DNA of 64,000 bases from Geosiphon pyriformis uo1. Taxonomy: Eukaryota; Fungi; Glomeromycota. The stretch lies in contig JAAOMT010000591.1 in assembly GCA_016748015.1 (NCBI GenBank), positions 543,050 through 607,049 of the forward strand, given 5' to 3'. Numbering within the stretch: position 1 is the first letter of the stretch; the number at the start of each line of letters is the position of its first letter. Below the pieces are notes generated by a model. That model did no database searches and was not told the DNA's origin. It worked only from the letters and a program-made list of their open reading frames with translations. Position numbers and translations under genes: made by a program. Shown piece by piece: positions 20,020 through 53,703 of this stretch.

Positions 20020-20025
20020 TAAAAG

Positions 20026-27087: not shown

Positions 27088-27091
27088 TTAT

Positions 27092-30660: not shown

Positions 30661-33600
30661 ATGGCCTATACACCAATTGTGAAACTGGATAATTTCACCA
30701 GCAAAGAAGATGATGCTCAAGTATGGCTGAATGATGTGAAAAAAGCCATCGCAGCCAACAGATGAAATAACACCTGAGCAATACAAGCCATTCTCTATTT
30801 TCTCAAAGATACCGCTGATTCATGGTATCAGAGCTTGATCAATAAACCACAAGACTTTAATGCTTTCAAAGTGGAATTCTTAAGATATTTCAGCAACAAT
30901 AACAGTATTAACCGCCTAGTCAATACATTTACCACCATGAAGCAAAGAAAAACTGATGCAGTCACACGCACCAGAGATTTTGAATCAGCTGAGTTCGAAG
31001 CCAATCACGCCCAAGCTGTTAATTTAGTAATGAACAAATCATCTGAATTGGACTCCAAATTGAAACAATTCAGTGATTTAATTAATCAGAAATTAAAAGG
31101 ATACTTAGCTGACAATTGTGCAATTTATCAACCACCTCAATAATGCAGCAATTCAGGAAACTACAATCATTCCCAAAATCAAGTGTGTCTCTCAACATCG
31201 GCCAATTAGCAGTGGCAGCCAGAGATGCGTGTTTGCCACAACTGTGATAAACAAGGGCACATCAGAGCAAACTGCAATGCTTATAACCACCAGCAATTGG
31301 GAAATCAATATAGAAACCCTGATCGCCAATTTTAAACTCTGAGATATCAACAAAATCAGGAACAATATCAAAACACTTATCTGCCAATAACACAGCAGCC
31401 AATTTACCAAGCATCAATATATCAGACTCCAGTTTATCAACTACAGCCACCAGCAATATATCAACCACAACCACCCATAATATATTAGCTGTAGCCACAA
31501 GTAATCTATCAACCCCAATTAATTTAGACACCACCCCAAAATTCAGTTAATATGACATCAGGCCACCCCAGACCTAGAAACACACAAAACTGGAAATTGG
31601 CGATAGTTGTCCACCAACTGATCTCCAGTTTTTCTAACTCACCATCAGGATTACATTCTTGGAATTCGGGTATTAGTGCCACCTAAAACCTGAATTCCCA
31701 GAACTATTTAAGTCTTCTGGTTACTCCAGAAGATGCCACCACCAACAATTCGGAATCCAACCAACAACAAGCACTTACCAACAACATTCTACCAGCAACT
31801 GTCACCAATAACAAATTGCTTGTGGCCATCTTTTTTTTCGACTTGAAAGAAATGATCAAAATTCCGTTATTTAGTGGAACAGCTCTGGAAGAGAAGCTAA
31901 TCACCACCATGTATATAGATGCCAAAATCAATGGTCACATCATCAAACTGATCTTGAATATTGGATCAGCTGGCAGCATCATAACAAGGCAATTCATGAA
32001 TCAATTAAGTCACTGAGTTGACCAAGCTGTCAGTGCAAGGATCATCACAGCTAATGAAGCGATTAAAACTCCAATAGGCAAAATAGACAACCTACCTATT
32101 GAAATTAATGGCATCATGGTACCCATCAAAGTCCTTGTGATGGAAGCCACTCAGTACCAAGCTTTTGTTAGAAATGATTGACTATCCAAAACAAATGCCA
32201 TACTCAATTGGACAATGCAAGAGCTCCAACTGAGCCAAAATGGTCAACATACTCAAGCACCAACAGTATGTGGCCACTTTAAACCAACCAACTCGCAACC
32301 ACTGATCGAACTTGAAAAGGAAACAAAAAAACCAACATGGGAAGCATATCAGGTTTCGTGGGCTGACATCGACCACAATGAACTGCTACCCATACTCGTC
32401 TGAAACAAAGATGACCATGGAAAAAGAAAGCAGAAAGAAGAACATACCTGGGAAACCACTATTGGCACTTGGATTGATGACAACCAAAATGAGTTGCCAC
32501 CTACACTAAGTTGGGAAGAAAAAAAAAAGAGAAAGAAAAGAGAAGACAACCTACCAAAAGAAATTGAATCAACAAAAGACACCACTAGTGGCTGGACAAG
32601 TTTGAACTCTGTCCATGAGCCACTGCCACAACCACCACACATACTGCTCAAATACAAAAATTGTGGAAAGAAACTCTCTTCCATGAGAGCTTGGGTCACA
32701 CCAGACAAAAATCACTGAACGCAAACCCACTATTATTGTAAGCCTTGCCACCGCAAATGGTATGGCTATCCAAAAAGACAGGACAAGTGAGACAACAAAC
32801 CATATCTTGCTTGCAGCAAACAGTTGCTTGACAAAGGAATGTAGAACAACATTCCTGGTCAAGGAAAAATATGCAACACTTCATGTCAGTACACAATTCT
32901 CATCAATGACTGGGTGAGTCATGGTATGTCAATAACTGCCACTTGGCACTAAGCAATCTCTCGCCTGAACAGATACCCACATGATGAAGACAAGATCTGG
33001 CGGATGGCAAATGCCAAAGTAGAAGGTGCCACACCCAATAAAATCTTGGAAATCAAGAACAATCCTCCAAAACCAGTTAACATTATCCTAGTCCCCAACC
33101 CAGACACTTTTTTTAACATTGAGACCAACTCAGAAGACTTCCACAAACATTATCAAAATTTAGCACCAACCAGAAAGGAACAGAAAGAGTGGTTAGCACA
33201 GCTAAATACTTGATTATGTGACCACTGTTTGATTCCATGTGACTTTTAATATTGTAATGAGTGTGATCTCATTTACAATCTACTGATCTGCATGATTTAC
33301 ATGATCCCAGAGGAAGAGAAACCAATCAGCAGCTGCACATTGGAATCAGAATTACCGTTTGATCCCAATTTAAACTCCGACAATGACAACAACAAAAACA
33401 CCAATTCCAGCTCCATTCAAATTGGCAATAACAACGACAATGATTCCAACTCAGATTCAAACTCTGATCCAAAATATGAACAATACATTGCACTGCCAGA
33501 CCTCTCCAAAGAACAGGAGTTGAAATGGTATAGTGACAATAATAAAAATATCATGCCAGAACGTGCACACAATAATGATGCTGGATTTGATCTGAGGTAT

Positions 33601-35778
33601 CCAGGAAAAAATGCCATCAAATTGGAACCACATTCATGCACCTACATTGATTTGAAAATAGCACTGGAAATTTCAGCAACAACAATAGTCCAATTAGCAT
33701 TTAGGAGTAGTTTAGCGAAAAGAGGAATTAATATAAGAGAAGGAATAATTGATGCAGGATATGTAGAAAATATTATCACTATGCTACAAAATGATTCAGA
33801 AGAGGCCTATATAATAGAGCCCAATGAAAAGATAGCACAGGCAATATTCCTGCCTCTGGTTAGAGTAGCTCAGTTAGTATTAGTGAGAAAGAGGAAGAAA
33901 TTAAGAATAACAGTGAGAGAAATACAGGGATTTGGATTAACAGGTAGAGTAGATGTACCAGTCAATATGGCAGAAGAAGAAATTGTTGACCAAGGGGAAA
34001 TTATCTCAACAGGTCAAACAATTTCTATTCCACCATATGGCCAGTACATGATAGGGATAAAGCGGGAGGTAAAAAATCAGATTCAGATTTTTAAAGCAGA
34101 ACCAACTCTCTGTAAATCAGGAGAGATTGGACTTATCAATTTCCATATACCAGCCAAAGATTACAGCCACATCAAAATACCCATCTACAATAACACAGGA
34201 AATGTCATAGTAATATCAGCTGGAACCACTATTGGATACTTAAGCACTAAAATAGAGGATCAATCACCAAGCACCATTCCAGACTTTTCACAGCTTTGTG
34301 AATATGTTGATATCACATCACAAACAATATATGGACGAAGTGAATGTTATTTGCTCCAACCAGAACAATTGGAACAAATGAACATAGGAAACTTAGATCC
34401 ACTCCAATGTATGCAACTTAAGATGTTGCTCAACAATTTCAATGACATCTTTGCTAGCAAAAACGAATTTGGCCAAACTGACATCATCCAGCATCAGATC
34501 AAGACTGGAGATGCAATGCCAATTAAATAAAGAGCATACAGAGTACCACCAGCTAGCCACGAGATTATCCATCAAGAGATAAACCAAATGCTTGATAATA
34601 AGCTAATTCAGTCATCAATGAGCCCATGGTCATTACCAATGGTACTCGTCCAGAAAAAGAATGGGAAAATCCACTTTTGTGTGGATTATAGAAAACTCAA
34701 TAGAATAACTCATGAAGATAGCTACCTCACTTCATGGATCCAAAAACTATTTGATGCTTTCGGTGGAAACAAATGGTTTTCAACATTAGACCTGGACAGT
34801 AGTTACTGGCAAGTAGCCATGAATTCAGCCAACAAAGAAAAGACAGCATTCACCACCAGAGAAGAGAATTTTGAATTTGAAGTAATGCTATTTGGCTTAA
34901 CCAACGCACCAGCCACTTTCCAATAGCTAATGGAAATTGTTTATACTGGCTTATTGTGGAAATTAGTAGTTGTATACTTGGACAACACCAATGTATTCTT
35001 AAAAACATTTAATGATCATCTTCATTATCTTCAACAAGTATTCGAAAGACTAAGAAGAGCAGGACTAAAGTTAAATACAACAAAGTGTTTTTTCAGCAAA
35101 ACAGAACTAAAATTTTTGGGACACATAGTCAGTAAAGACAGCATCAAAACAGATTCAAAAAAAATAGAAATAGTAAAGAACTTTCCAGTGCCAACCAATA
35201 TGACAGAACTGAAATTATTCTTGGAATTTGCCAGCTACTATCGACATTTTATCAAGAACTTTTCCAAGATAGCACAGCCATTCAATCAACTGTAAACCAA
35301 GAATACAAAATATGAATGAACAGAAAGTCAACAAAAAGCTTTTGATATTCTGAAAAGAAAATTCATTCAAGCTCCAGTACTGATCTATCCAGATTACAGC
35401 AAACTATTTATTATCACCACCGATGCATCTGGCCAAGCATTGGGAGCAGTACTATCTCAGAGAGGACCAGACGGCAGAGAACATCCAGTAACATATGCCA
35501 GCAGAGGTTTAACACCAGCCAAAAAGAACTATAGAACACCAGAACAAGAACACTTAACAATATACTGGGCAGTCATGAAATAGAAAGAATACTTGAGCCA
35601 GAAGTTTGAAATATACACAGATCACAAAGAATTAATATCACTTCAAAAACAAGAATTTGGAGATGGAAGACAGTCAAGATGAAAAATGGCACTCACACCA
35701 TATAATTATACTATACATTATAAAAAGGGAAAAGACAATGGAAATGCTGATGGTTTGTTGTGAATGAAACAAATCTAA
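30661..35778 (+). pseudogene. Family B gag-pol in a single frame: capsid, CCHC, protease, Cys-rich region, dUTPase, RT, RNase H
   Basis: All ORF fragments from 30835 to 34930 are in one frame. LDNFTSKEDDAQVWLNDV capsid; CHNCDKQGHIRANC; LILNIGSAGS protease; MLFGLTNAPATFQ and YLDN RT; TTDASG and GNADGL RNase H; TAA 35776-35778. The coding frame probably extends upstream to ~29343-29640. Confidence 0.88.
33550..33945 (+). pseudogene. dut: dUTPase domain within family B pol
   Basis: All five trimeric dUTPase motifs are recognisable: DAGFDL, RSSLA, GIIDAGY, EKIAQAI, R..QGFG.TG. Confidence 0.92.
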
Positions 35779-35840
35779 GAACATTTCAACCCAAAAATAT
35801 AACAAAACCAGAACAATACCAATGAAAAATATAACAAAAA

Positions 35841-37201
35841 ATGAATATACAAAAATATTAACAACTGCAACATTATATAAACACTCAACAGTTCAAGGAG
35901 AATTTATTTCAAATGGAACAAAAAAGTATCAAACAACAATCAAAATATTTTATCACTCACTAAAATATACTTTACCAGAAAAATAGAAGAGATCTAGATC
36001 AACCAACCAGAGTAATTACAGAGCCAGAAAAAGAGACAATATTATTTAACATGCACTCAAATCCAACAGCAGGACACTTTCACAAAGAAGCAACTATAGA
36101 AAAAACCAAAAAAAAATACTATTGGCCATCAATGTATCCAGACATCATCCAATATGTTCAAAATTATGATGCTTGTCAGTAAAGAGGAGGTACAAAACTC
36201 AGTGAACCATTAAGACCAATCAAAGTGGGATTGATTTAGTCAGACCATTAACAATCACCAGCGGAAAAAACAGGTACATAGCAGTAGCCATGGACTATCT
36301 CACTAAATGGCCAGAGGTGAAAGCAATTCAAAGAGTGGATGCAAAATCCGTTGCTAAATTTGTTCATCAAGATTTAATTTGTCAACACGGATGTCCAAAG
36401 GAATTATTATCAGACCAAGAAACTCATTTTGTGAACAGAACATTAACAGAATTGAGCCAAAGATTTGGAATTAAGAGACCACTATTATCACCATACCATC
36501 CACAAACCAATAAATTAGTCAAAAGATTCAACAGAACATTGTGTGAAGCAATAGCTAAGCTCAGCCAAGAAAACCAGAACGATTGGGATTTGTTGATACC
36601 ATCAGTACTATTTGCTTATCGGACAATGAAGCAAGATACTATACAAGCAACATTATTTGAATTAGTATATAGTAGAACAACAACACTACCAGTAGAAATA
36701 GAAGTCAGTATATACCCAACCAAATCAATAACAGAAGAGAATTTCAAAAACACATTGTTGAAAAGAACATATGACTTAATAAAAACATTAGAAAACAAAT
36801 GACGAAGAGCAGTTGATAACATACAAAAGTCACAAGAGAAACAAAAAGAAAGATATGATAACCAACTACTAGATAAACCAGTTAAATTCAAGATTGAAGA
36901 CAAAGTACTACTACATCATACCAAAACGTAAAAACAATAGAGTAGAAAATTTGACCCCAAATGGGACAGACTATTTCACATGGAAGAAATTCTAGGAAAT
37001 AGAGCTTACAAATTAAGATTGAATAACAAAATCTTAATCAAAGCAGCATATGGAGATCGACTGAAATCATACCACCATATAGCATCATCATCTACCAGTA
37101 ATATTCCACAATTAGAAGTACAGAGAATACTAGTCCAACCAAATGAGATTTCACGAGATCTAAAACCAATCATTATCATTAACAACAACATGTCTAATTG
37201 A
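35841..37201 (+). pseudogene. int: Family B stand-alone integrase ORF, disrupted
   Basis: Own ATG at 35841 in a different frame from pol. MHSNPTAGHFH zinc domain, MDYLTKWPE, LLSDQ, YHPQTN.LV.RFN core, C-terminal SH3-like region. Confidence 0.85.
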
Positions 37202-37884
37202 TTGACAAAAAAATATATAAGAACATAGTTGACATGACAGAAAAGATCAGAAAAATGGAAATTACGGACAATATCCATTCACCTGCTCAACAAATTTTTC
37301 AATTAATTCAACACCAGGAAATAGAAATTACAATCAATCAACAAATTATTTGTTACAAAAATATGGCAAAGATATCACAAAACAAAGCACAGAAAAGACT
37401 TGAAAATGTTGTTGACAAGATCATGACCAAGATAAAATTGGCCATAAAAGAACAACAAATAGTCGGATTACACCAAGAACTTACCAGAGAAACTTGGACT
37501 TAGTGAATGCAACAATTTCTGAAAAACTATTGTTATTTTCACTTGGAACAACATGTAAATATCCAGAATTTGTACACCGACAAAACAAAATGGTTATTTG
37601 ACACAACAATACTGAAACAACTAAAACAATTTATGGGAAAAAACAATCTAACCACACAAGCTTGAGCCATTTACCAGCTATATATGAGATTTCAAGACTG
37701 ACCAGAAATCTTACTCAATACAGCAATGGATACAGTTACAAGTAATCAATTGGGAAAAATGACCAACATCCAATTTGAAGAACTATAAACTAAAATAACA
37801 CAAATAATACTCAAAAAAGAAGTTCAAAAAATAATTCAAGAAGGGGAATTAAAGGAATTAGATTTTGATGGAGCTCAATATTAA
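37198..37884 (+). pseudogene. Family B ORF3 (unknown function, env position), disrupted
   Basis: About 228-codon frame between IN and the PPT, broken only by stops explicable as C>T/G>A. The C-terminal motif resembles family A ORF3. Confidence 0.65.
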
Positions 37885-37897
37885 AAAAAGGAAATAA

Positions 37898-38823
37898 TGT
37901 TACTCCTAGAATATAGGAAATATAGTATTATTAGTCAGTAGATATTAGCCAATCAGATGTAGACATAGTAAATGTAGAATTCCAAGATTCCTCTTAGAGG
38001 AATTGCAGGATTCCAAGAATTTCAGGATTCTCCAATAAAAAATTGCAGGATTCCAGAATTCCAGGATTTCTCTCATCAGGAATTGCAGGATTCCAGAAAT
38101 TCCAGAATTCCTGTCGCAAGGAATTAAGGAATTGAAAAATCTCAAATATGTATATATAGCAGTAGTGTTAGAAGCAGAAAAGACAAAATCAACACTAGGA
38201 ATTCTTAGCTGAATTACCACAATCTTCAAATAAATAATTATTCACTATATCAAATTCATTCTTCACTATCAACACTTTATGTTGATAGTAACTGATGCTT
38301 AACCATACTGGAACAATAGCTCTTGATTATGGCTATTGATGAGATACTAACTTGCAAATCACCTTGGCTTATTTCTTATTTTTCTTTTATCTTTCTCTAT
38401 TTTCTTTGTTGTCTACTAACTTGATTAAAGGATTTACTCTTAAAGGACTTACAGAGGAATAAAACTTACTTAAAAAATATTTACTCTTGGAGAACTTATA
38501 GAGGAATAAACTTGCTTAAATAATACTTACTCTTGGAAAACTTACAGAGGAACTGATGTCAGGAAACAGTACTGGTATACACTTATGGAGGATATCATAC
38601 CAAGAGAATCATCAATCATCCAGCTGAGCAAGCAATCGACAAAATTACGGTTTCAGGAAACTACTGATAAACTGTTACCATTGAATCTCTGTCCATTATA
38701 CAAAGAACTCAATTGGAAAACCTTCAGATAAAATATCTTCAGATTATCATTGTCACCAATCACTTTGCACACCAAGTTACAGGTTTGTTATTCACTCAAC
38801 ACCCCAAAGACTTATCTGTAACA
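37898..38823 (+). repeat. 3' LTR of family B
   Basis: Direct repeat of 28685-29610, same length. Confidence 0.93.
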
Positions 38824-39269
38824 CCGTATAATGCCCAAAATTTCCACTTGTATCTCTGAAGTTGTTTTCTTCATAAGCTTCATGTCTTCTATGATTTCAC
38901 CAAGATGACCATAGAGTTCTAGTTGTTTTCCATATGACAAGTTTTTGTCTATGGGCAAAATTTCTTTAATCATTTTTCCAATTGTGATGGAAGGTATAAG
39001 TATTGCTGCTGTTATGCTTTCCAACAGATACTTATCCATTTTGCTACCAATTCTTTCTCTTCTGGTAGTTGTTTTCTTTGGTCTGATAACAGTATGTGTT
39101 CCATTGTTGTTAGTTATTGTAATTTGTTTTCCAATGGTTAGAGTAGCATTTGGATAGTTTTTAATCCAATACTTATGAAGAATATAAAAAGCGTTTTGAA
39201 TGTTTTGATTCAGAAAATAATTGTTCATGTCGATTGAAGATACCTCTGTTTTGGAAATGGTGCATTTAT

Positions 39270-40571
39270 TTATACTTGGTTTTTGCTAATCATTTGGGTC
39301 AGTATTATCACAACTGGTAACCAATCAAGTCATTTGTAATATTTCTTGAATTGCAGGCCATGAACAGGACGATCATTAAAGATTGTTCTGGATTGATCTT
39401 GAAGAATATAAGAACTATTGTTCAAAACTTTGTTGACTATAAAGGGACCTTTCTACCGGCTAGAGAATTTATCACCATAGACATTGTCTCTGTCTGAGCA
39501 GTATTCCAAAACTAAGTTACCAACACTTAAAGAAAGTGTTTTATAAGTTTTTTTTTTTTTAAGCTTTTCTTGGAACTGTTTTATCTTTTTAAAGACAATT
39601 ATTCGTGCTTCTACAAGTGAGTCAAGAATGGTACCAAGTCTCCTTTGCAAAATGTCTTTGTAATTCCCTATTGTGATCTCTTTAAAGAGTATTGTCTCAA
39701 TATCAGTTTTTATTGGTAGTGTTGTCATTTATCCATAGAGCAGATAAAAAAGTTCATAACTTGTTATGTCATGATTCACAGTTCTATAAGCAAACAAAGC
39801 TGAAGGCATTACTTTGTTTCATAAGTTTGTTTCTTCACTTGTTTTGGCTAAAATTTCAATTGAAATGTTTCACTAGGCTATTTGTTTGGGGGTGATAAAG
39901 GAAGAAAGTTTGTGATGTATTCCCATTTTTCCACAAAGTTCTTCAACCAGTGTACTGAGAAAGGCTTTTTTTTTATCAGATAATAGTTCTTTGGGGCAGC
40001 CATGGCGACAAATGATATTTTCATAAATGAAATTGGCTATTGAGACTGCTGTTTGATCTGGAATGGCTCTTGCTTCTATCCACTTTGTAAGATAGTTGGT
40101 AGCTGTGATGATGTATCTGTTGCCATTAGGAGTTACTGTTAAAGTTCCAACAACATTTATACCAATTCTGTCAAATGGTTGACTAACAGAGATTGGATGG
40201 ATATCTTCTTTGCAATTGGGTTTTTCTCTTCTTTGGCAGGTATTACAGATTTTAATGTATTCAGCAATGTCTTTTCCCAAAGTAGGCCAATAATAGCAAG
40301 CTAAGATTTTCTGAATTGTTTTTGTTTTTCCAAAGTGTCCAGCTAATAGATCAGTGTGCATATTGTAGATCACAATTTCTCTTTCTTCAAATCTTATGAC
40401 TCTCTGGAGGCGGTCAGGATCTTTTCTATTTTATTTATATAATTGATTCTGGCAGATCAAATAAAAATTTGATTGTTTGTGCAAATGTTCTCTTTGCTGT
40501 TGATTGTATTCCAGTGGGTATTGTTCTTTACCCAAAAATTCCATTAAGGCAGAGTAGCTGTCCAAGTCTAT
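39270..40571 (-). pseudogene. int: A2 stand-alone integrase ORF, disrupted
   Basis: MHTDLLAGHFG...CNTC, YLTKWIEA; separated from the pol stop by a non-coding spacer. Confidence 0.87.
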
Positions 40572-40636
40572 TATTGTGTTTGGTTGTGAAAGAATTACTA
40601 ATAATTAGATTGGTTTGGTTTGAGGTAGTTGTATTG

Positions 40637-43330
40637 TCACTGGATGGTAAGTCTAGAAAGAGCATCAGCATTTTAATGATATGCTCTTTTGTGATGTTGA
40701 ATATTATAGTCAAATTTATCTAAGTGGAGTATCCAGTAAGTTATTTTTTTATGTTCTAGCTTCTTTTTGTTGCATAACCAAACCAAAGCTTGGTGATCTG
40801 TTACTACCAGGAATTTGGCACCAAGAAAATATTTGTTCCAATAACTAGTAGCCCATACTACTGCCAAGCATTCTTGTTCAGTCACCAAGTAGTTCTGCTC
40901 TGCTGGTGAGAAAGTTCTACTGGCATATGCTATGGCATGTTCTTTGCCATCTTCATCTTTCTGGGATAGAACAGCTTCAAGTCAATAGCCAGATGCATCA
41001 GTGTGGAGGATGAAAGGTTGATCTAGATCAGGTTGCTTTAGAATTGGTTCAGTGACTAGTTTTTCTTTTAGAGTTTCAAAAGCTTTTTGTTGGTGTGTGC
41101 CCCAATGGTAGTTGATGTTTTTCCTGAATAGCTGATTAAGTAGAGCAGCTATTTTGGAGAAATCCTTGACAAATTTGTGATAATAGGAAGCCAAACCAAG
41201 GAAAGAGCATAGTTCATGAACATTCATTGATTGTCTAATGTTCTGGACTTTTTCAATCTTAGCTGGGTCAGGAAAAATTCCATCTTTTGTGATAAGATGA
41301 CCAAGGAATTGGGTGGATTGTCTTCCAAAGAAAAAGTTGATCAGGTTGATTTTAAGACCTGCATTTCTGAGAAGATCAAAAACCTTTTGCAAATGTACAA
41401 AGTGTTCATCCTAGGTTTTTGAGTATACCATTATATCATCCAGATAGACCAAAACAAAGTTTTTTTTCACTAATTCAAATACTTTATCTATTAAGTGTTA
41501 AAAGATGAAAAGAGCATTGGTGAGACCAAAAGGCATGACTGTGAATTCATAGATGCCATACTTGGTGATAAAGGCAGTTTTCTTCCAGCTTTCTGGATCC
41601 ATCTCTACTTGCCAGAATTTAGCAGTTAGATCAATGGTTGAAAAGAAAGCAGCATCTTTGAATTGGTCCAGCATTGCATCAATCTTGGAAAGTGGGTACA
41701 TGTCTCTTTTAGTGATGGTATTTAATTGGTGGTAGTCAACACAGAAGCATAGAGTTCCACCTTTCTTGGATACCACTACAACTGGAAAAGCCCATTCACT
41801 TTTGGTTTCTTGTATGAATCCAAGTTCTTTCATCCAGTTTATCTCTTTCTTGATGAACTCATTATTGTGCCGATTGGATTGATATGGCTTCAAATGGATG
41901 GGGCGAGTTTCTCTGGTGGTGATAGTGTGTTGTATCACATAAGTTCATCTAGGGGTATCACCTTCTTTTGAGATAACTGGGCTATTTTTAGCCAACAGAT
42001 TTTTAATGTCTATCTTTTTTTCTTCTGGGGAGAGTTTTTTTTGTTCTATAACTAATAATTGGATTTCAGGTAGTTCATTCTCAAAGGACTTTTGTACTTC
42101 TTTTAATTCTTTTTTTGGTATCAAACTGATTGGTTTCCAATCTTTGTAATAGATTAGGCAGGATTTGTATTTGTCACTTGGAGAATACAAGGGTTGATTG
42201 CACCAGCACTGGGCACAAGGACCATGTCACCAATAATAGTACTTGGCTTTCTTGCTAGGCTTCTGGTCAAAAGTTCTTCTTAGGATATCATAGTAGGGCC
42301 AGCAGATCAGCTTGCCATTTACAATGATTCCTTTTCTGTCAGTTTTGATATTGTCCAGTAGTTTACCATTGCTGGTGAAGGTGGTATAGGCAAGTTCAGC
42401 AGTTTTTTTTTGTTTCTCTTGTTCTTCTTCATTATTACTTTCTTCATCATCTGATTCCTCTGATTGTTTTTCTTCCTGATTCTGTTTTGGTGTTGGAGGG
42501 GTTGTCCAGTAGCGACACTTAACCACAATGGGCTTCTCACCACATCTGATGGTTAGCTCACAAAGTTCATAGTCAAGTAATGCTTTGGCTTTCTTGAGCC
42601 ATTCATTTCCAACAATAATAGTGTATTTCTTGGCTTCAGAAACTTCCATGTCAGTTTCAATGCTGATGCCATTGATACAGACAGAAACAGCTTTGGCTAT
42701 GCCCAGATCTTTCTTCTTGTTACCATGTACATTGGTTATTGGTCAGGTGGAAGGTTCATCAATTTTTCTCCCAATTACTTCCAAAAAGTGTTTGGCAATG
42801 ACGCTAACAGATGATCTACTGTCCAGGATCAAGTCAATGAAATAGCCAGCCACTTGGGCTTTGCAAATTAATGGAGTGACATTGTTGTTGTCAGCAAGTC
42901 TAGCTTGGCAAGGACATTTATTGGTTTTTGGTGTTTTCTTCTTGGGAATTAGAGATTTGTGGAGATCTTTTCTGAATTGTGGGTTGGTCATTAGTTGGCC
43001 AAAGGTAATGTGTGTAGGAGTTTCCATGAGATCTTTGACAACAGAATAAGGACCAGATTTTTGTACTATTTCTGGGAATTCCAACTTTGGAGGATTCTTA
43101 AAGACTTTAGCCTTTGGTGGCTCATTATTATTAACAATTGATGTGGATGGTTTATTTGGATCTAAAACAAAATCAACCTTGGCTTTCTTCATCTTCTTTT
43201 TTGATTCTGAGGTGTTGATTGCTAGTTCATCCATGTCATGGTCATCATCAGTTAAGTTAAAAGCATAAAAGGGGTTTTCTTCTGGTTGGCTTGCACTCTC
43301 ATTCTTTGGAGGTGCACCTACCAATTTAAA
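40637..43330 (-). pseudogene. pol: A2 pol (PR-RT-RH), disrupted
   Basis: LILDSRSSVS, MPFGLTNA, VYLDD, HTDASG, NADALSRL; stop TGA. Confidence 0.9.
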
Positions 43331-44871
43331 GGCTGGTAAACTGTGGCTTCAACTAGGGGATTCTCTCCAAAGAAATTGATGTTGGCATGATTGGGTCTTT
43401 GATTGGGGGCATTGTTGTTATTGATTTTGTTGTTCTGGTTGTCATTGTTTCTAGGAACTGGAGGAGGCAAAGGAGGATTGTTGCAATCTCTGGAGAAATG
43501 TCCAGTTAATCCACATCTATAACACACAGGAGAGCCACAATTTTGCTGTCTTTGGTAAGGGGGTTGCTGGGGCTAATTAAAACAGTTTTCAAATCTGGGT
43601 CTTTGTGGTTGCTGGTTATCTCTGACTGCTTGGGCTAATGGTTTTAATAGCTGAGGAAGATTTGCTGTAAGTCTATCTATTAATTGTTTATTTGGATCTT
43701 GTGTTTGGGCAGCAAAAGAAGTAGCAGCCATTTGAGGAGTAGGAGCCATAACAGGAGCAGGAGCAAAAACTGGAAGTGTGGATCCCAAATGCATTCTTTG
43801 ATTGTTTTCAATTCTTTGGGCGAGTTCAATGGCCATATTCATGGTGGGATTATCTTTTAAAGCCAAGAGAGGCCAAAGAGCATACGATAAATCAGTTCTC
43901 AATTCTTTTGTAAAGGAGTGGATCTTTTGCTCTTCAGTCCAGTTTCTATCAGAGTTTACATGCTTAATGAGTTTTCTGATTGCTTTGGCATATTCAGTCA
44001 CAACTTCACCAGGATCTTGGGTTCTTCTTTCTAATTCCATATGCCATTTGGATATTAAGATAGGGGTTCTGAATTTGTTTTCAAACCAGGTAGTGAAAGA
44101 GGTGTTGTTTTCTCCAATATTTGCTGGGGTCTATCTAACAATTCTTTGTTGAGCACCAGCATTGGTTTTTTGTGAAAACCAGGTAGCAGGGGAGCCTTGG
44201 AGGTAGCCACCAACAATTTGGAACTTGTATTCATCATTATACTGGTTTGCAGTGGCTGCTTTTTCAAAATTGTTTAACCATTCAATTGGATCTTGGACAT
44301 CACCTCTAAATAGAGGTAGTGGGGTGTTGTTTCTTCGCCCCAAAGCAGTTTGTATGCTTTGGAGGGCAGCCAGAATGTTTGCCTGCATGGGATCTTGGGC
44401 CATTGGTTCAGGGGTTACTGTTTGAGTGGAATGTTCTGATTCACTTAAAAAGAGATCAAAAATAGGAGCAGTTTGGTAACTTTCTTCTTCTGTTTCAAGG
44501 AGAGTTATAGTTGATTGGTGAGCAGCAACCCAAATGTGTATTTGGTGATTCAGATATTCGAAATTAGGGGGCTGTTGTGTGAAAGTTGTGGAGTATAAAA
44601 GCTGATTGATGCTATTATTTCTTTCTTCAAAGTTGTCTTCAAAATAAGCTTGGTCAAAGTAATAAGTTATATATGCTGTATAGGTTTTAGCTGAGTGCTC
44701 ATTTAGGAACCAGTTCCAAAAGTCTTGGAATTGTCTACTAGATTGTTCTTCAAGGGGAAAGCAGATCAAGCAGGAGAGCAAGGGATTGAGTTCAATAAAG
44801 TCTAGATCATTTCTGTGGTGTGCTGCAAAGTGTTCTTCTGATTGCTATGGCAGATATGAATAATCACCCAT
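43318..44871 (-). pseudogene. gag: A2 gag, disrupted
   Basis: PLFRGDVQDPIEWL; intact knuckle CYRCGLTGHFSRDC. Confidence 0.88.
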
Positions 44872-44923
44872 ACAATGAGAAAATAAGTAAATTTTGACAA
44901 CCTCACAGGGAGTACCACTTTTA

Positions 44924-45622
44924 TGTTCTGGGTTGGAGTAACAAGCTAATAGATAGCAAGAGAAAACAGGATTGTAGGGTGATGGAAATAATCAAAGGGA
45001 ATTTCAACTTTAAAGAGTGAATTAAATGAGTATGGATTCAATGTGCAAGATCAGTCTCATAAAATATCTCAGTCACTATTCTTTTCAAAGGTAACTGGGA
45101 AATCTAAAGGTAGAGGGATAGTCCGTACTATCAACAAATGATCACACTTGGTATAATTCTATGCCTCATGTCAGTGCTTTTAGAATTCAATATCAAGTAT
45201 CAGATGTGCTCTTCAGTCACATTTTATTCAATAATCTTCAAATACTTCATTTAATTGTTTCAGAAAAAGGCAGATAAACACCAACAAGAGATCTTTTATC
45301 CAAAAGATGTTCAGATACTTGAAGATAGGGAAAGAGAAATTAGTGATAAGAGAATATTTGAGATGAAAGTTGTTTTATTATATTTCTTTGATTGTTGGGA
45401 ACATACTTTTCTACAGCTAAGAGACTCATTGCTTATATAGCTATGAAAAGTAGTCAATGACCAGGTCAACGACCAGGTCAATGATTAAGTCAATGATCAG
45501 ATCAACAGTCAGGTCATTGATCAGATCAATGATTACTATCTAAAAATAGGTTGGCTAATTATATGACATCAGTGGCTAATACATGTGATAACTAATAAAA
45601 ACTATGATTTTCAACCATAACA
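44924..45622 (-). repeat. 5' LTR of A2 (seven 12-bp units)
   Basis: Adjacent to the PBS; pairs with 27734-28459. Confidence 0.93.
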
Positions 45623-45921: not shown

Positions 45922-46658
45922 TGTTACAGTTGAAACCCATAATTTTTATTAGTTATTACATGTATTAGCCATTGATGTCATATAATTAACCATTCTATTT
46001 TCAGATAGTGATCATTGATCTGATTAATGACCTGACTATTGACCTAATTATTGACCTGATCATTGACCTGATCAATGACTTGATTGTTGACCTGATCATT
46101 GACCTGATTATTGACCTAGTTGTTGACCTGGTGGTTGACCACTTTCATTAACTATATAAGCAATGAGTTTCTTAGCAGTAGAAAATCATCTCTCAGACAA
46201 GAATCAAATAAATAAAAATAACAATTTCATCTCAATCACTCTCTTATTGCTAATTTCCCTTTCTCTACCTTCAAGTATCCGAACATCTTAGGATAAAAGA
46301 TTACTTGTTGGCCTTTTCCTGACATATATAATTGTAGCATTTGAAGATTATTTGAATAAACGTGACTGAAAAGCACAAGTTGATACCTGATATTGAATTC
46401 TAAGAGCGCTGATGTGAGGCATAAAATTATACCAGTGGTGATTAATTGTTGACAGTATGGACTATCCCTCTATCTTCAGATTCCCCAGTTACCTTTGAAA
46501 AGAATAGTGACTGAGATATTTTATGAAACTGATCTCACACATTGAATCCATACTCATTTAATTTGCTCATTGAAGTTGAATCCTCTTTGATTATTTCTAT
46601 CACCCTACAATCCTGTTCTCCCTTGCTATCCGTTAGCTTGTTACTCCAACCCATAACA
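45922..46658 (+). repeat. 5' LTR of A3 (737 bp, eleven 12-bp units)
   Basis: TGTTACAG...CCCATAACA. Confidence 0.95.
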
Positions 46659-46710
46659 TAAAAGTGGTGCTCCCTGTGAGATTGTCAAAATTCACTTATT
46701 CTCTCATTGT

Positions 46711-48263
46711 ATGGGTGATTACTCATATCTGTCACAGCAATTAGAATACTTTGCAGCACACAACAGAAATGACCTAGATTTTATTGAACTTAATCCTCTG
46801 CTCTTCTGCTTGATCTACTTTTCCATTGAAGAACAATCTAGCAGACAATTCCAAGACTTTTGGAACTGGTTCCTAAATGAGCATTCAGCTGAAACCTACA
46901 CAACTTATACAACCTATTACTTTGATCAAGCTTATTTTGAAGACAACTTTGAAGAAAGAAACAACAGTATCAATCAGCTCTTATATTCTACAACCTTTGA
47001 ACAACAGCCCCCTGATTTTGAATATCTGAATCATCAAATCCACATTTGGATTGCTGCCCATCAATCAACAGTAACTCCCCTTAAAACAGAAAATAAAAAC
47101 TACCAAACAGCCTCTATTTTTGATCCCTTCTTAAGTAAATTAGAGCACTCCACACAAACAGTAACTCCTGAACCAATGGCCCAAGATCCAATGCAAGTAA
47201 ACATCCTGGCCGCCCTCCAAGGCATACAAACTGCTTTGGGGTGAAGAAACAACACCCCACTACCCCTATTCAGAGGTGATGCCCAAGATCCAATTGAATG
47301 GTTGGATGATTTTGAAAGAGCAGCCACTGCAAACCAGTATGATGATAAATACAAGTTCCAAATCATTGGTGGCTACCTCCAAGGCTCCCCTGCTACCTGG
47401 TTTTCACAAAAAACCAATGCTGGTGCTCAACAAAGAATTGTTAAATGGACCCCAGCAAATATTGGAGAAAACAATACCTCTTTCACTACCCGATTTGAAA
47501 ATAAATTCAGAACCCCCATCTTAATATCCAAATGGCATATGGAATTAGAAAGAAGAACCTAAGGTCCTGGTGAAATTGTGACCGAATATGCCAAAGCAAT
47601 CAGAAAACTCATTAAGCATGTAGACTCTGGTAGAAACTGGACTGAAGAGCAAAAAATCCACTCCTTCACAAAAGGATTAAGAACTGATTTATCATATGCT
47701 CTTTGGTCTCTCTTGGCTCTGAAAGACAACCCTACAATGGATATGGCTATTGAACTCGCCCAAAGGATTGAAGATAACCAAAAGATGCATTTGGGATCCA
47801 CGCTTCCAATTTTCACTCCTGCTCCTGTCATGGCCCCTGCTCCTCAAGTGGCTGCTACTTCTTTTGCTGCCCAAACCCAAGACCCAAATAAACAATTGAT
47901 AGATAGACTCACAGCTAACCTTGCCCAGTTATTAGAACCATTGACACAAGCAGTCAGAGATAACCAGCAACCACCAAGACCTAGATATGAGCCTCGTTTT
48001 AACTAGCCCCAGCACCTCCCTATCAAAGACAGCAAAATCATGGCCCACCTGTGTGCTATCATTGTGGATTAACTGGACATTATTCAAGAGATTGTAACAA
48101 TCCTCCACTGCCTCCTCCAGCTCTCAAAAACAATGACAACCAAAACAACAGACCCAACAACAACAACAATGTCCCCAATCAAAGACCCAATCATGCCAAC
48201 ATCAATTTCTTTGGAGAGGATTCCTTAGTTGAAGCCACTGTTTATCAGTCTTTAAACTGGTAG
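46711..48263 (+). pseudogene. gag: A3 gag, disrupted
   Basis: Capsid motif; CYHCGLTGHYSRDC; ends ...LNW*. Confidence 0.9.
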
Positions 48264-48300
48264 GTGCACCTCCAAAGGGTGAGAGTGCAAGCCAACCAGA
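48251..48300 (+). promoter_or_regulatory. Candidate -1 programmed ribosomal frameshift site (T TTA AAC plus downstream hairpin)
   Basis: X XXY YYZ heptamer in gag phase two codons before the gag stop. pol is in the -1 frame. Conserved at 21615 and 43324-43330 (-). Confidence 0.8.
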
Positions 48301-50944
48301 AGAAAACCCCTTTTACACTTTTAACTTAACTGATGATAACCATGACATGGATGAACTAGCAATCAACACCTCAGAACCAACCAGAAAGAAGAAGAAAGCC
48401 AAGGTTGATTTCATTCTAGACCCCAACAAAGCCTCAACTTCTGCTGCTGATAACAATGAGCCACCAAAGGCTAAAGTTTTTAAGAATCCTCCAAAGTTGA
48501 AACCCCCAGAAATTGTACAAAAATCTGGACCCTATTCCATTGTCAAAGATCTCATGGAAACCCCAGCACATATTACCTTTGGCCAGTTAATGACTCACCC
48601 ACAGTTCAGAAAGGATCTTCGCAAATCCTTGATTCCAAAGAAGAAGACACCAAAAACCCACAAGCGCTCTCACCAAGTTGGATTTGCTGACAACAGCAAT
48701 GTCACCCCTCTGATTTGTAAAGCCCAAGTGGCTGAATACTTCATTGATTTAATTCTGGACAGTGGATCATCTGTTAGTGTCATTGCCAAACACTTCTTGG
48801 AAGCAATTGGTAGAAAGATTGATGAACCTTCCACCAGACCAATGACCAACGTACATGGTGACAAAAAGAAAGGACTGGGTATTGCCAAAGCTGTTCCTGT
48901 TTGCATCAATGGAATCAGCATTGAAACTGACATGGAAGTTTCTGAAGCCAAGGAATACACCATCATTGTTGGCAATGAATGGCTCAAGAAAGCAAAAGCT
49001 TTGCTTGATTATGAACTTTGTGAATTAACCATCAGATGTGGTGAGAAACCCATTGTGGTTAAGTGTTGCCATTGGACAACTCCTCCAGTACCCAAACAAA
49101 ACCAAAAAGAAGAACAATCAGATGAATCAGATGATGAAGAGAGTGATGAAGAAGAAGAACAAGAAGAGCAAGAAAAAACTGCTGAACTCACCTATACCAC
49201 CTTCACCAGCAATGGCAAACCACTGGACAATGTTAAAGCAGACAAAGAAAGAATCATTGTAAATGGCAAGCTAATCTGCTGGCCTTATTATGATATTCTT
49301 AGAAGAACCTTTGAAAGAAAACCTGGCAAGAAAGCCAAATACAGTTTTTGGTGGCATGGTCTTTGTGCCCAGTGTTGGTGCAACAAACCCTTGTATTCTC
49401 CAAGCGATGAATGCAAATCATGCCTGATCTATTACAGAGATTTGGAACCAATCAGTTTGATACCCAGAGAAGAATTGAAAGAAGTACAGAAGTCCTTTGA
49501 GAATGAACCACCTGAGATTCAATTACTGGTTGTAGAACAAAAAGAACTCTCCCCAGAAGAAAAAAAAATAGACATTGAAAATTTGCTGGCTAGAAATAGC
49601 CCAGTTATTTCCAAAGAAGGTGATACCCCTGGACGTACCCATGTGATACAACACACCATCATCACCAGAAAAACTCGACCCATCCATTTGAAGCCTTATC
49701 AATCCAATCGGCACAATGATGAGTTTATCAAGAAAGAGATAAACCGGATGAAAGAACTTGGATTCATACAAGAAACCAAAAGTGAATGGGCTTTCCCAGT
49801 TGTAGTGGTATCCAAGAAAGGTAGAACACTATGCTTCTGTGTCAACTACTGCCAGCTAAATGCCATCATTAAAAGAGACATGTACCCACTTCCCAAGATT
49901 GATGCAATGTTAGACCAATTCAAAGATGCTGCTTTCTTCTCAACTATTGACTTAACTGCTGGATTCTGGCAAGTAGAGATGGATCCAGAAAGCAGAAAGA
50001 AAACTGCCTTCATTACCAAGTATAGCACCTATGAATTCACAGTCATGCCTTTTGGTCTCACCAACACCCCTCCTACCTTTCAATGCTTAATGGATAAAGT
50101 ATTTGAATCAGTCAAGGAAAACTTTGTTTTAGTCTATTTGGACAACATAATGGTATACTCAAAAACCTGGGATGAACACCTGGAACATTTGCAAAAGGTT
50201 TTTGACCTTCTCAGAAATGCTGGCCTCAAGATCAACCCAATCAAATCTTTCTTTGGAAGACAATCTACCCAGTTCCTTGGTCATCTTATCACAAAAGATG
50301 GAATCTTTCCTGACCCAGCCAAAGTTGAAAAAGTCCAAAACATCAAACAACCAATAAACATTCATGAACTATGCTCTTTTCTTGGTTTGGCCTCTTATTA
50401 TCGCAAATTTGTCAAGGATTTCTCCAAAATTGCCTTTCCTCTCAATCAGCTACTCAGAAAAAATGTCAATTACCATTGGGGAACACATCAGCAAAAAGCC
50501 TTTGAAACTTTAAAGGAAAAACTGGTTACAGAATCCATCCTCAAGCAATCTGATCTAGATCGACTCTTTATCCTCCACACTGATGCATCTGGCTTTGGAC
50601 TTGGTGCTGTTCTCTTCCAGAAAGATGAAGATGGCAAAGAACATGCCATAGTCTATGCCAGTAGAACTCTTTCCCTAACAGAACAGAACTATTCAGTTAC
50701 TGAACAAGAATGCTTAGCAGTAGTATGGTCCACCAGTTACTGGAGTAAGTATCTTCTTGGTGTGAAGTTTTTGGTGGTAACAGATTACCAAGCTTTGGTT
50801 TGGCTGCGCAACAAAAAAAGGCTAGAACACAAATGGATAACTTGCTGAATACTCCACTTGGATGAATTTGACTATGATATTCAACATCACAAAGGAGCTA
50901 ATCATCAAAATGCTGACACTTTCTCCAGACTTACTATCCAGTAA
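48251..50944 (+). pseudogene. pol: A3 pol (protease, RT, RNase H); 833-aa open stretch, YLDD mutated to YLDN, one late premature stop
   Basis: LILDSGSSVS, TIDLTAGFWQV, MPFGLTN, HTDASGFGLGAVL, EQECLAVVW; terminal TAA 50942-50944. Confidence 0.93.
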
Positions 50945-51010
50945 CAGAACAACCCTCTTAAACCAAACCAACTTAATTATTAGTAATTCCCTTTTTTGAC
51001 AAACATGATA

Positions 51011-52311
51011 ATGGACTTAGACAACTACTCTGCCTTAATGAAATTTTTGGGTAAAGGACAATACCCACCAAAATACACATGACAACAAAGAAAACATTTG
51101 CACAAACAATCAAATTTCTATTTGATTTGCCAGAACCAACTTTATAAAAGAAATAGAAAAGATCCTGACCGCCCCCAGAGAATCATCAGATTTGAAGAAA
51201 GAGAAATTGTGATCTACAATATGCACACTGATCCATTAGCTGGACACTTTGGAAAAACAAAAACAATTCAGAAAACTCTAGCTCACTATTATTGGCCTAC
51301 CTTGGGAAAAGATATTGCTGAATACATCAAAACCTGTGATATCTGCCAAAGAAGAGGAAAAAAGATATCCATCCAATCTCTGTTGGTCAACCCTTTGACA
51401 GAATTGATATAGATGTTGTTGGACCTTTAACAATAACTCCTAATGGCAACAGATACATTATCACAGCTACCAACTATCTTACAAAGTGGGTAGAAGCAAG
51501 AGCCACTTCAGACCAAACAGCAGCCTCAATAGCCAATTTCATTTATGAAGATATCATTTGTCACTATGGCTGCCCCAAAGAACTTTTATTTGACAGAGAA
51601 AGAGCTTTTCTCAATACACTTGTTGAAGAACTTTGTAAAAAAATGGGAATACATCACAAACTTTCCTCTCCTTATCACCCCCAAACAAATGGTCTAGTGG
51701 AACATTTCAATAGAACACTATGTGAAACCTTAGCCAAAACCAGTGAAGAAACAAACTTATGGGACAAAGTACTGCCTTCAGCCTTGTTTGCTTATAGAAC
51801 TGTGAATTATGACATAACAAGTTATGAACCCTTTTATCTACTCTATGGACAAATGGCAACCCTACCAATAGAAACTGACATTAAGACAATACCCTTTGAA
51901 GAAATAACAATAGGGAATTACAAAGACATTTTGCAAAGAAGACTTGGTACCATTCTTGACTCATTAGTAGAAGCACGGATAATTGCCTTTGAAAAGATAA
52001 AACAATTCCAAGAGAAGCTTAAGAAAAAGAAAACATATAAAACACTTTCCTTAAGTGTTGGTGACTTAGTTTTAGAATACCACTCAGACAGAGACAATGT
52101 CTATAGTGATAAATTCTCTAGCCAGTGGAAAAGACCCTTTATAGTCAACAAAGTTTTGAACAATGGTTCTTATATCTTACAAAATCAATATGGAACAATC
52201 TTCAATGATCACTCTGTTCATGGCACATGACTCAAAAAATATCACAAATGACCTAATTGGTTACCTGTTGTGGTAATACCGACCCAAATGATCAACAAAA
52301 ATCAGATATAA
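51011..52311 (+). pseudogene. int: A3 stand-alone integrase ORF, disrupted
   Basis: ATG GAC TTA GAC at 51011 after in-frame TAA...TAG TAA; HHCC domain, DDE core, SH3-like C-terminus; no chromodomain. Confidence 0.9.
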
Positions 52312-52352
52312 ATAAATGCACCATTCCCAAAACAGAGGTATCTTCAATTGAC

Positions 52353-53009
52353 ATGAACAATTATTTCCTAGATCAAAACATACAAAATGCTTTCTACACT
52401 TTCCATGAGTACTGGATCAAAAATTATCCAAATGCTACTCTAACCATTGGAAAACAAACCACCATAACTGATAACAGTGGAACACATACTGTTATTAGAC
52501 CAAAAAAAACCACTACCAGAAGAGAAAGAATTGGTAGCAAAATGGATAAGTATTTGCTGGAAAGCATAACAGTAGCAATACTTACACCTTCCATAACTAT
52601 TGGAAAAATGATTAAAGAAATCTTGCCTATTGACAAAAACTTGTCATATAGAAGACAACTAGAATTCTATGGTCATCTTGGTGAAATCATAGAAGAAATG
52701 AAGCTCATAAAGAAAACAACTTCAGAGATACAAGTGGAAATTTTGGGCATTATACATTTAGATGTCCCAAGAGTTTTGACCATTACAAGAAGAGCCAAAA
52801 CTCTTATACAAAGATTTGGTTTCTTGGATACAAAGCTTATTTCGCCTCAAGTACTATACACTCTATCCACAAAAGACTTCAACAAACTAGTTAGTTTTGA
52901 GTTAGACAAAACCCTTCAATTAGAATACCCTATAAATAGCTTGATTTTGCCAGAGCTTAATCTCTTTGGAGAGGATGATGTTATGATTGAAACCCATAAT
53001 TTTTATTAG
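52353..53009 (+). CDS. A3 ORF3, intact 218-aa protein of unknown function overlapping the PPT and the start of the 3' LTR
   Basis: MNNYFLDQ...GEDDVMIETHNFY*; colinear in all three family A copies. Confidence 0.75.
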   Translation: MNNYFLDQNIQNAFYTFHEYWIKNYPNATLTIGKQTTITDNSGTHTVIRPKKTTTRRERIGSKMDKYLLESITVAILTPSITIGKMIKEILPIDKNLSYRRQLEFYGHLGEIIEEMKLIKKTTSEIQVEILGIIHLDVPRVLTITRRAKTLIQRFGFLDTKLISPQVLYTLSTKDFNKLVSFELDKTLQLEYPINSLILPELNLFGEDDVMIETHNFY

Positions 53010-53703
53010 TTATCACATGTATAAGCCACTGATGTCATATAATTAGCCACTCTATTTTCAGATAGTGATCATTGATCTGATCAATGACCTGACCATTGAC
53101 CTGATTATTGACCTGATCAATGACTTGATTGTTGACCTGATCATTGACCTGATCATTGACCTAGTTGTTGACCTGGTTGTTGACCACTTTCATTAGCTAT
53201 ATAAGCAATGAGTTTCTTAGCAGTAGAAAATCATCTCTCAGACAAGAATCAAATAAATAAAAATAACAATTTCATCTCAATCACTCTCTTATTGCTAATT
53301 TCCCTTTCACTACCTTCAAGTATCCGAACATCTTAGGATAAAAGATTACTTGTTGGTCTTTTCCTGATGTATATAATTGTAGTATTTGAAGATTATTTGA
53401 ATAAATGTGACTGAAAAGCACAAGTTGATACCTGATATTGAATTCTAAGAGTGCCGACATGAGGCATAGAATTATACCAGTGGTGATCAATTGTTGACAG
53501 TACGGACTATCCCTCTACCTTCAGATTCCCCAGTTACCTTTGAAAAGAATAGCAACTGAGATATTTTATGAGACTGATCTTGCACATTGAATCCATACTC
53601 ATTCAATTTGCTCATTGAAGTTGAATCCTCTTTGATTATTTCCATCACCCTACAATTCTGTTCTTCCTTGTTATTCATTAGCTTGTTACTCCAACCCATA
53701 ACA
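52979..53703 (+). repeat. 3' LTR of A3 (725 bp, ten 12-bp units)
   Basis: Direct repeat of 45922-46658. Confidence 0.95.

Follow-up and report, generated by a model that had tools for sequence, protein, structure and literature searches.

Ty3/Gypsy-like elements of Geosiphon pyriformis belong to a lineage that encodes integrase in a reading frame of its own

Described systems and the elements in the window

In textbook LTR elements and retroviruses, integrase (IN) is delivered in the Gag-Pol polyprotein, which fixes both its amount and its packaging. Foamy viruses make the whole of Pol from a spliced mRNA, cleave IN from Pol and package it without a Gag tether; the elements described here resemble them in an enzyme apparently made apart from Gag, and differ in that only IN is separate. 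In the ICTV profile of the Metaviridae, integrase is part of a single pol gene (PMC7879559). PosPlaTy3-5 carries a dUTPase between PR and RT and consists of one or two ORFs, with no separate IN described in the excerpts covered of PMC2864245. Reinitiation has been proposed for LINE-1, whose two ORFs lie 63 nt apart, and in influenza B ribosomes reach an AUG 63 nt downstream (excerpts of PMC5972666). The initial annotation of the present locus had proposed surveying the literature for elements split between RNase H (RH) and IN. A search with most subscription journals and Repbase entries outside its scope returned no such description, including in the excerpts covered of PMC2864245 (whose element-structure supplements, outside that scope, could bear on novelty), PMC2582038, PMC13468544, PMC12440569, PMC11952901 and two bioRxiv preprints.

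The window examined in the present study is a stretch of 64,000 nucleotides from G. pyriformis, a genome comprising 41.2% LTR sequences according to excerpts of PMC11952901. It contains three copies of one family (A1, A2 and A3) and an element of a second family (B), with the following features:

19294..27088, + strand: element A1; LTR identity about 91%, TSD TTAT, IN 24375-25742, ORF3 25784-26440
27734..45622, - strand: element A2; LTR identity about 89%, TSD ATAT, ORF3 interrupted by element B
28685..38823, + strand: element B, nested in A2; LTR identity 92%, own ORF3 extending into the 3' LTR
45922..53703, + strand: element A3; LTR identity about 93-94% (45922-46658, 52979-53703), TSD ATAC (4 bp)
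46711..48263, + strand: A3 gag; CCHC knuckle and Retrotrans_gag domain, lacks 1 nt near 48013, as does A1
48233..50944, + strand: A3 pol (PR-RT-RH; Pfam on the A1 copy)
52353..53009, + strand: A3 ORF3, 218 aa; starts 41 nt past the IN stop, its end lying within the 3' LTR

These elements resemble Ty3/Gypsy (Metaviridae; yeast Ty3) in their LTRs, 4-bp TSDs, gag (PF03732, E 1.4e-6) with a CCHC knuckle visible in translation, and PR-RT-RH-IN domain order based on Pfam and tblastn positions. A PBS-like TGG site (in A3 from 46665, 6 nt past the 5' LTR) and a purine tract ahead of the 3' LTR are candidates for the PBS and PPT. The best match of an IN profile among PDB sequences was Ty3 (7q5b, E 1.5e-51), Foldseek returned PFV IN first and then Ty3, and Pfam PF17921 and PF00665 matched the IN of A1. 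The closest named relatives of the decayed family A elements are from G. pyriformis. Entry into A3 pol is probably by a -1 frameshift at the slippery heptamer TTTAAAC (48251-48257), and the AFKLVGAP sequence of this site is shared by a relative, L004. Element B has a dUTPase domain between PR and RT, the same place as in the PosPlaTy3-5 excerpts, whereas family A has none.

The elements differ from the Metaviridae profile in having a separate ORF for IN and, behind it, an ORF3 that is apparently not an Env. Since pol stops after RH in every copy and in 41/41 relatives (best 80 of 481 candidates), they are best regarded as a variant of Ty3/Gypsy and not as canonical members. The four-ORF layout of gag, pol, int and ORF3 put forward in the initial annotation is borne out, as A3 and A2 retain an open ORF3, whose distant homologues start at the same Met. 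ORF3 gave no Pfam match above the cut-off, its predicted structure is mostly helical at low confidence (pLDDT 46), and neither Pfam nor this low-confidence model revealed a resemblance to Env. A profile search among the related loci (best 80 of 481) matched ORF3 in L001 only.

The pol-integrase junction of family A

The junctions in the window are arranged as follows:

50942..50944, + strand: A3 pol stop TAA, immediately behind RNase H; any variant below 4% in run X1 contigs
50945..51010, + strand: A3 RH-IN spacer, 66 nt; G-poor, unstructured (folding z +1.3)
50958-50988, + strand: A3 spacer core, 31 nt; contains in-frame TAG TAA 50981-50986
51011..52311, + strand: A3 integrase ORF with its own ATG 51011-51013; decayed (stops, 13-nt deletion at 51361)
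24306..24377, + strand: A1 junction; TAA 24306-24308, TAG TAA 24345-24350, IN start position 24375 reads ATA
40569..40639, - strand: A2 junction; TGA 40639-40637, TAG TAA 40600-40595, IN start position 40571 reads ATA, gap 65 nt
35776..35843, + strand: family B junction; pol stop TAA 35776-35778, IN ATG 35841, gap 62 nt, different frame

Family A pol ends in SRLTIQ-stop directly after RNase H in 3/3 window copies, as the initial annotation had noted, and its positions for A1, A3 and A2 hold. Relative to the A3 frame, pol contains 10 premature-stop sites, each of which is sense in at least one of the three copies; the RH-terminal site is the only pol stop site common to all three. An in-frame TAG TAA lies 13 codons past this stop, and the stop-to-start gaps of A1, A3 and A2 are 66, 66 and 65 nt. 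The distance from TAGTAA to the IN start codon position, on which the case for a non-coding gap had been built, is indeed 24 nt in A1 and A3 and 23 nt in A2. This 1-nt difference alone is no proof, however, because 1-nt indels also occur inside coding regions of the same decayed copies (48013, 51665). Of the window copies, only A3 still encodes the Met proposed for the IN N-terminus, by an ATG, where a second in-frame ATG at 51005 precedes that at 51011; A1 and A2 read ATA.

Variation at the junction was assessed in X1, a single DNA run possibly from the window's own sample and so not an independent organism, using 501 contigs over 50915-51045 with shares depth-weighted over overlapping contigs. 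Other letters at 50942-50944 and 50956-50986 were all below 4%, and the TAG at -27 from the IN start was invariant at that level. By depth, the IN start codon was ~75% ATG and ~25% ATA. Nine loose ends in X1 read 23 nt from TAGTAA to the start, another nine are of the A2 type, and three contigs have a 1-nt deletion at 50994. Runs X2 and X3 had almost no coverage of the element.

The invariant TAG bears on a possible subgenomic IN mRNA, which could arise by splicing to 50981-50983, shortly after a branch-point-like CTAAT/TTAAT, or by transcription from a promoter within RH or the spacer; a route of this kind would also have to serve ORF3. We rate this a minor but real possibility. The 31-nt core, invariant like the TAG at the 4% level in X1 while the flanks vary, would fit such a signal, with 28/31 positions identical in the three copies versus 19/35 in the flanks (p=0.002, boundaries chosen after the fact). 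Against this, its conservation (90%) is close to the coding background (82%), 14% of 31-nt windows equal it, and the pyrimidine run of family A falls after the TAG. A sigma-70 promoter scan gave chance-level results and is not meaningful for a fungus.

The split across the lineage

The separation of IN from pol is conserved across the lineage and independent of frame, and the N-terminal Met of IN is fixed. Relatives, a survey of which the initial annotation had also suggested, were taken as the best 80 of 481 confirmed candidates, 39 of the 80 lacking a usable RH match upstream of IN; wherever RH and IN were both present the two were split (41/41 loci). Clustering these 41 loci at 80% identity gave 37 groups (best 80 of 481), with IN in frame 0, +1 or +2 relative to pol in 11, 15 and 11 of them, respectively. 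IN overlaps the pol stop in 14/37 groups (-1 to -14 nt) and follows it after 1-100 nt in 16/37, and a stop lies within 100 nt of the IN AUG in 34/37 when the closest preceding ORF that reaches 25 codons is counted (all among the best 80 of 481). Overlap junctions include TAATG in L033 and L034 and ATGA in L041 and L059, and a short intervening ORF finishes on the IN AUG in L032 and L057. The gap is 63 nt in L003, and 727 nt in L048, where it contains 12 AUGs but every ORF is shorter than 25 codons. The first zinc-finger His lies 68-72 residues past the Met in 94 of 120 stand-alone IN homologues; all begin MD, MN or ME. A search of IMG/VR for IN gave three weak matches only.

Alternatively, a fused RH-IN could still be made by readthrough or frameshifting, or the gap could be decay inherited from a dead master copy. 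Every window copy is decayed (LTR pairs 89-94% identical), and the gag frameshift near 48013 shared by A1 and A3 means that common lesions can spread. One close relative is genuinely fused: in a FastTree tree of IN only, with fused proteins as outgroups, the ORF P0127 (12 members) is sister to the split L059. Three other fused proteins lie near the base of this tree, on which the split lineage is not cleanly monophyletic. What speaks against fusion or decay are the three in-frame stops of family A, spacers differing by 1 nt between subfamilies, the use of all three frames, the fixed start Met of IN, and 14 loci (best 80 of 481) with uninterrupted ORFs to either side of the split (pol 480 codons or more, IN 390 or more). 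The three closest 'fused' database proteins (P0123-P0125) lack the end of RH, the start of IN or both, a pattern expected of gene models in which called introns span the junction. This explanation is largely refuted, and we consider it very improbable. At the level of sequence, the comparison confirms the split as a lineage-wide design and not decay. The earlier view of a real gap is thus upheld by the 41/41 split loci (best 80 of 481), their three frames and the stop fixed in X1 contigs.

Possible routes to a free integrase

Since IN lies in its own frame about 65 nt past the pol stop, ribosomes that stop and restart are its likely source, and its entry into the particle would require a non-textbook route. 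Based on the sequence comparisons, we give roughly even chances to translation of IN from genomic RNA by termination after RNase H and reinitiation about 65 nt downstream. A -1 frameshift at TTTAAAC would yield Gag-PR-RT-RH, after which the post-termination 40S subunit would stay on the RNA and reach the IN AUG across a short A/C-rich spacer that lacks structure; in other branches the same restart would pass through overlapping stop and start codons (-1 to -14 nt). Free IN, with no Gag tether, might then reach the particle by binding its own template RNA. HIV-1 IN binds RNA and capsid, according to excerpts of PMC13102720.

In spacing, as distinct from function, these elements resemble LINE-1 as excerpted, both having two long non-overlapping retroelement ORFs ~63 nt apart (65-66 nt in family A, 62 in B and 63 in L003); LINE-1 differs in being non-LTR, with an RT/endonuclease as its second ORF and no capsid to enter. 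The TAATG and ATGA overlaps of the sister branches L033, L034, L041 and L059 recall calicivirus and influenza B TURBS, hypovirus and SART1, as far as the excerpts on these go. In contrast to TURBS, family A has a gap of 65-66 nt and no stop/start overlap, and motif 1 (TGGGA) is not enriched, occurring within 100 nt upstream of the stop in 1/30 loci versus 3.3 expected (best 80 of 481). The 3' end of RH has no clear excess of synonymous conservation. An A at -3 is found at 25/41 IN AUGs (best 80 of 481) versus 116/374 internal pol ATGs (p=2e-4; purine test p=0.08), which equally fits ordinary cap-dependent scanning of a subgenomic RNA. Upstream AUGs were few in short spacers (4 against about 11 expected; best 80 of 481), but this shortage was discarded as not specific, GTA (1), AGT (6) and TAG (6) being scarce too.

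Reinitiation behind a -1 frameshift would give little IN, which counts against it, as would the TAGs at -27 in family A and -28 in L003. Scanning cannot explain the 727-nt gap of L048 with its 12 AUGs. Both the L003 TAG and the L048 gap favour a subgenomic RNA, as does a minor internal promoter at the Tca2 gag-pol junction; Tca2 pol nonetheless followed the LTR promoter (both from excerpts of PMC2194720). The branch point and splice acceptor suggested in the initial annotation do not suit a general mechanism: among the best 80 of 481, there is no YAG in 11/17 related spacers of 24-97 nt and no AG at all in 4/17, and the AUG kept on the pol stop in 14/37 groups would be left unexplained. Where L003 has its TAG, L004 reads AAAG, and both lack a CTRAY branch motif at this place. 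What stands of the acceptor is the TAG at -27 invariant within family A. Reinitiation, which had been listed as an alternative, fits the comparative data better.

A further signal is found in one sister subclade of the IN tree, to which it is confined: R1, a strongly covarying RNA hairpin of ~45 nt just upstream of the IN AUG. Both sides change in 8/10 pairs and 95.7% of cells pair, which 0/500 shuffles reach; R1 ends 0-15 nt ahead of the AUG in 19/20 measured loci and 32 nt ahead in L058. The R1 model gave no match in the window (best E about 1), where family A and family B spacers showed no folding, and R1 was not found in other branches of the lineage. Rfam searches of 10 loci (0 matches at E<=1) and pattern searches of viral contigs and prokaryotic genomes (0 in each) were negative, and the 21 strong matches of the model in 81 sources comprise 19 training sequences and two near-duplicates, with no independent new member.

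The covariation of R1, its position by the AUG and its one-subclade confinement could point to internal ribosome entry near the IN AUG, independent of pol translation, through R1 in the sister subclade and the unstructured A/C-rich core in family A; this would uncouple the IN level from frameshift efficiency. We nevertheless consider internal entry unlikely, as R1 is absent from the window and other branches, may just as well serve in protein binding, packaging or repression, and at ~45 nt is small for an IRES, while the family A spacer has no structure. Under reinitiation, R1 would be a candidate IN-binding site or ribosome tether. A joint reading, which we hold to be rather unlikely in its entirety, envisages a large, old fungal Ty3/Gypsy lineage with a bicistronic pol, whose free IN would be made from genomic RNA and loaded by binding that RNA in cis, with R1 as the binding or tether site coupling IN translation to packaging and the family A 31-nt core as its unstructured counterpart.

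Annotation pipelines appear to mis-model split elements with introns bridging the stop (P0123-P0125), and could score intact split copies as dead. The natural series of junctions, comprising overlaps, short gaps, hairpin-bearing gaps and a long gap, offers a test of reinitiation after a long ORF in fungi and of the way in which free integrase locates its cDNA. That a successful lineage departs from Gag-Pol delivery of integrase implies that another delivery route exists.

Transposable elements of the window

The window is AT-rich and transposon-dense. Self-comparison revealed three copies (A1, A2 and A3) of one LTR element, family A, alongside a second, nested element (B).

19294-27088, + strand: element A1
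45922-53703, + strand: element A3
45622 down to 27734, - strand: element A2, its last ORF interrupted by element B
28685-38823, + strand: element B, nested in ORF3 of A2
24306 (A1), 50942 (A3) and 40639-40637 (A2, - strand): end of pol, SRLTIQ followed by a stop

All four have TG...CA-type termini and are flanked by target-site duplications of 4 bp, with a single mismatch in the case of B; since their LTR pairs are only 89-94% identical, all are old. Named database relatives are Glomeromycotina, specifically Rhizophagus for integrase (IN), and three Geosiphon pyriformis proteins are 84-89% identical to the ORF3 product of A3. Near 48013 in A3, and at the corresponding site of A1, gag has lost 1 nt upstream of the zinc knuckle; A2 lacks this deletion, and the other two copies may derive from a defective element that was mobilised in trans. 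An in-frame, aromatic- and acidic-rich extension of ~155 aa (46711-47180) precedes the usual Gag start region. Elsewhere, many long ORFs on either strand lie between the arms of a 627-bp inverted repeat (54499-55125 versus 63374-64000, 91.5% identical), and 54499-64000 is possibly a large terminal-inverted-repeat element.

Separation of integrase from pol

Pfam places protease (PR), reverse transcriptase (RT) and RNase H (RH) in family A pol, while PF17921 and PF00665 lie in a separate IN frame beginning 66 (A1, A3) or 65 nt (A2) past the pol stop. The initial annotation held that pol stops after RH in all three copies, that an in-frame TAG TAA follows, and that the gap before IN is not random decay, and each of these points was borne out. 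At the IN start, ATG is kept in A3 alone; both other copies read ATA, reflecting the kind of G-to-A change that is typical of this DNA. Read in the A3 frame, pol has 11 sites with a stop; ten of them are sense in at least one copy, and the RH-terminal site is a stop in all three. Among 501 junction contigs from DNA run X1, which may be the same sample as the window, depth-weighted letter shares revealed no alternative letter at ≥4% at the stop or across 50956-50986; the IN start is ~75% ATG and spacers 1 nt shorter recur. Family B is likewise split, IN lying 62 nt past the pol stop and in another frame; it also has a dUTPase between PR and RT and its own unrelated ORF3 extending into the 3' LTR.

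A search with A1 IN returned 1117 proteins of similar length. The first zinc-finger His lies 68-72 residues after an initial MD/MN/ME in 94 of the best 120, where only the fixed offset is informative because gene callers always start at Met. From 481 confirmed metagenome loci we took the best 80 by IN alignment, regardless of ORF structure; both RH and IN were present in 41, and all 41 are split. These form 37 groups at 80% identity, comprising 14 overlaps (-1 to -14 nt), 16 gaps of 1-100 nt and seven longer gaps, with IN in frames 0/+1/+2 relative to pol in 11/15/11. Fourteen loci combine 480 or more stop-free codons of pol with an IN ORF of 390 codons or more; L008, for example, encodes a Gag-Pol of 1621 codons, a 72-nt gap and an IN of 424 aa. 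The loci nearest family A (L001, L003, L004 and L030, then L037 and L056) are gap-type (27-63 nt) where the junction is present. In some relatives two long ORFs follow IN (L034:7458-9179, L056:2945-5367). Readthrough, frameshift fusion or decay is very improbable, since three stops lie in frame, the frame of IN varies freely and some relatives are intact, and we regard the split itself as practically certain.

The top three longer proteins retrieved (P0123, P0124 and P0125) are annotated Cetraspora and Rhizophagus 'fused' proteins, each without the end of RH, the start of IN or both, and are probably gene models with called introns bridging the stop; in P0125 Gag is joined almost directly to IN. 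P0127 is a genuine fused relative (41% identity, 12 members) and pairs with the split locus L059 in the IN tree (FastTree, 129 rows, 364 columns, loci covering <230 query residues excluded, 43 of 120 long proteins offered as fused rows). Three further fused proteins fall near its poorly resolved base. By these comparisons the split is ancient and widespread, in a lineage that the tree does not resolve as cleanly monophyletic.

Translation of integrase and the R1 hairpin

In 34 of 37 groups a stop codon, from pol or from a short ORF in between, lies no more than 100 nt from the IN AUG, and in 15 of these the two overlap; in L032:573-736 and L057:870-1400 the stop of such an inserted ORF overlaps the AUG. 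On sequence comparison, stop-to-AUG proximity is what the lineage keeps. Termination-reinitiation, offered initially as an alternative, fits this proximity, the preference for A at -3 of the IN AUG (p=2e-4) and the spacers of A and B, which are unstructured on folding. Ribosomes would restart directly at the IN AUG in overlap branches and traverse a short spacer in gap branches. A review (PMC5972666) relates the proposal of termination-reinitiation for the 63-nt LINE-1 spacer and shows influenza B ribosomes getting to an AUG 63 nt away. Against it count the lack of enrichment, in related loci, for a TURBS reinitiation motif upstream of the stop (1 of 30 against 3.3 expected), the lack of a clear synonymous-site signal, an upstream-AUG shortage in spacers that is not specific, and the 727-nt gap with 12 AUGs in L048. 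In family A, moreover, IN synthesis would lie downstream of a putative -1 frameshift at TTTAAAC, a further point against; the frameshift-site peptide recurs in L004. We consider reinitiation the leading explanation, about as likely as not. Expression from a subgenomic RNA is doubtful: the splice acceptor suggested at the TAG is possible in family A but not general, as YAG is absent from 11 of 17 short spacers and AG from four. Internal ribosome entry seems unlikely.

A sister subclade carries a motif of ~45 nt, R1, directly 5' of the IN AUG in 21 loci (including L008:5186-5244 and L010:580-632), ending 0-15 nt before it in 19 of 20 measured. Its 4-bp outer stem is separated by a purine-rich internal loop from a 6-bp inner stem, which is capped by the loop CANNGYGA. 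Eight of ten pairs change on both sides and 95.7% of cells pair, unmatched by any of 500 shuffles or any slid register, although deriving the structure from the sequences tested favours the pairing score. In the IN tree R1 is restricted to a single branch; it had no Rfam match (10 loci scanned, six motif-bearing) and was absent from viral contigs, prokaryotic genomes and the window in pattern and model searches. Pol runs on 235-313 aa past RH in four R1-bearing loci (L008, L026, L050 and L058), and 585 aa in L048. R1 shows selection on the spacer for an RNA-level function in at least one branch; candidate roles are ribosome tether, IN or Gag binding, and initiation repressor. The family A spacer lacks an R1-type hairpin; its 31-nt core, which holds the TAG TAA, is conserved at coding-sequence level, its flanks are not, and the core may be the counterpart of R1.

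Integrase, ORF3 and relation to Ty3/Gypsy elements

For the intact relative P0003, IN was modelled with good confidence (pLDDT 86.5); the model matches PFV and Ty3 integrases, with a predicted N-terminal helical segment preceding the zinc finger. Lacking a tether to Gag, IN would have to bind RNA or capsid, or join the cDNA later; cis-capture into the particle is plausible because HIV-1 IN binds RNA and capsid (PMC13102720). The proposed four-ORF design gained support: in A1, A2 and A3 alike, ORF3 starts 41 nt downstream of the stop of IN; it is interrupted by one stop in A1, is open in the other two copies, and has homologues 28-35% identical with the same start Met. ORF3 is, judged from this conservation, a real fourth ORF; Pfam and a structure model found no function for it.

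No description of an RH/IN split was found in the literature searched, whose coverage excluded subscription journals and Repbase. Family A works like Ty3/Gypsy elements but departs from the ICTV profile of Metaviridae, in which pol includes integrase (PMC7879559). What the present analysis contributes is a gap-type junction, a test of the splicing hypothesis and, from a sister subclade, R1.
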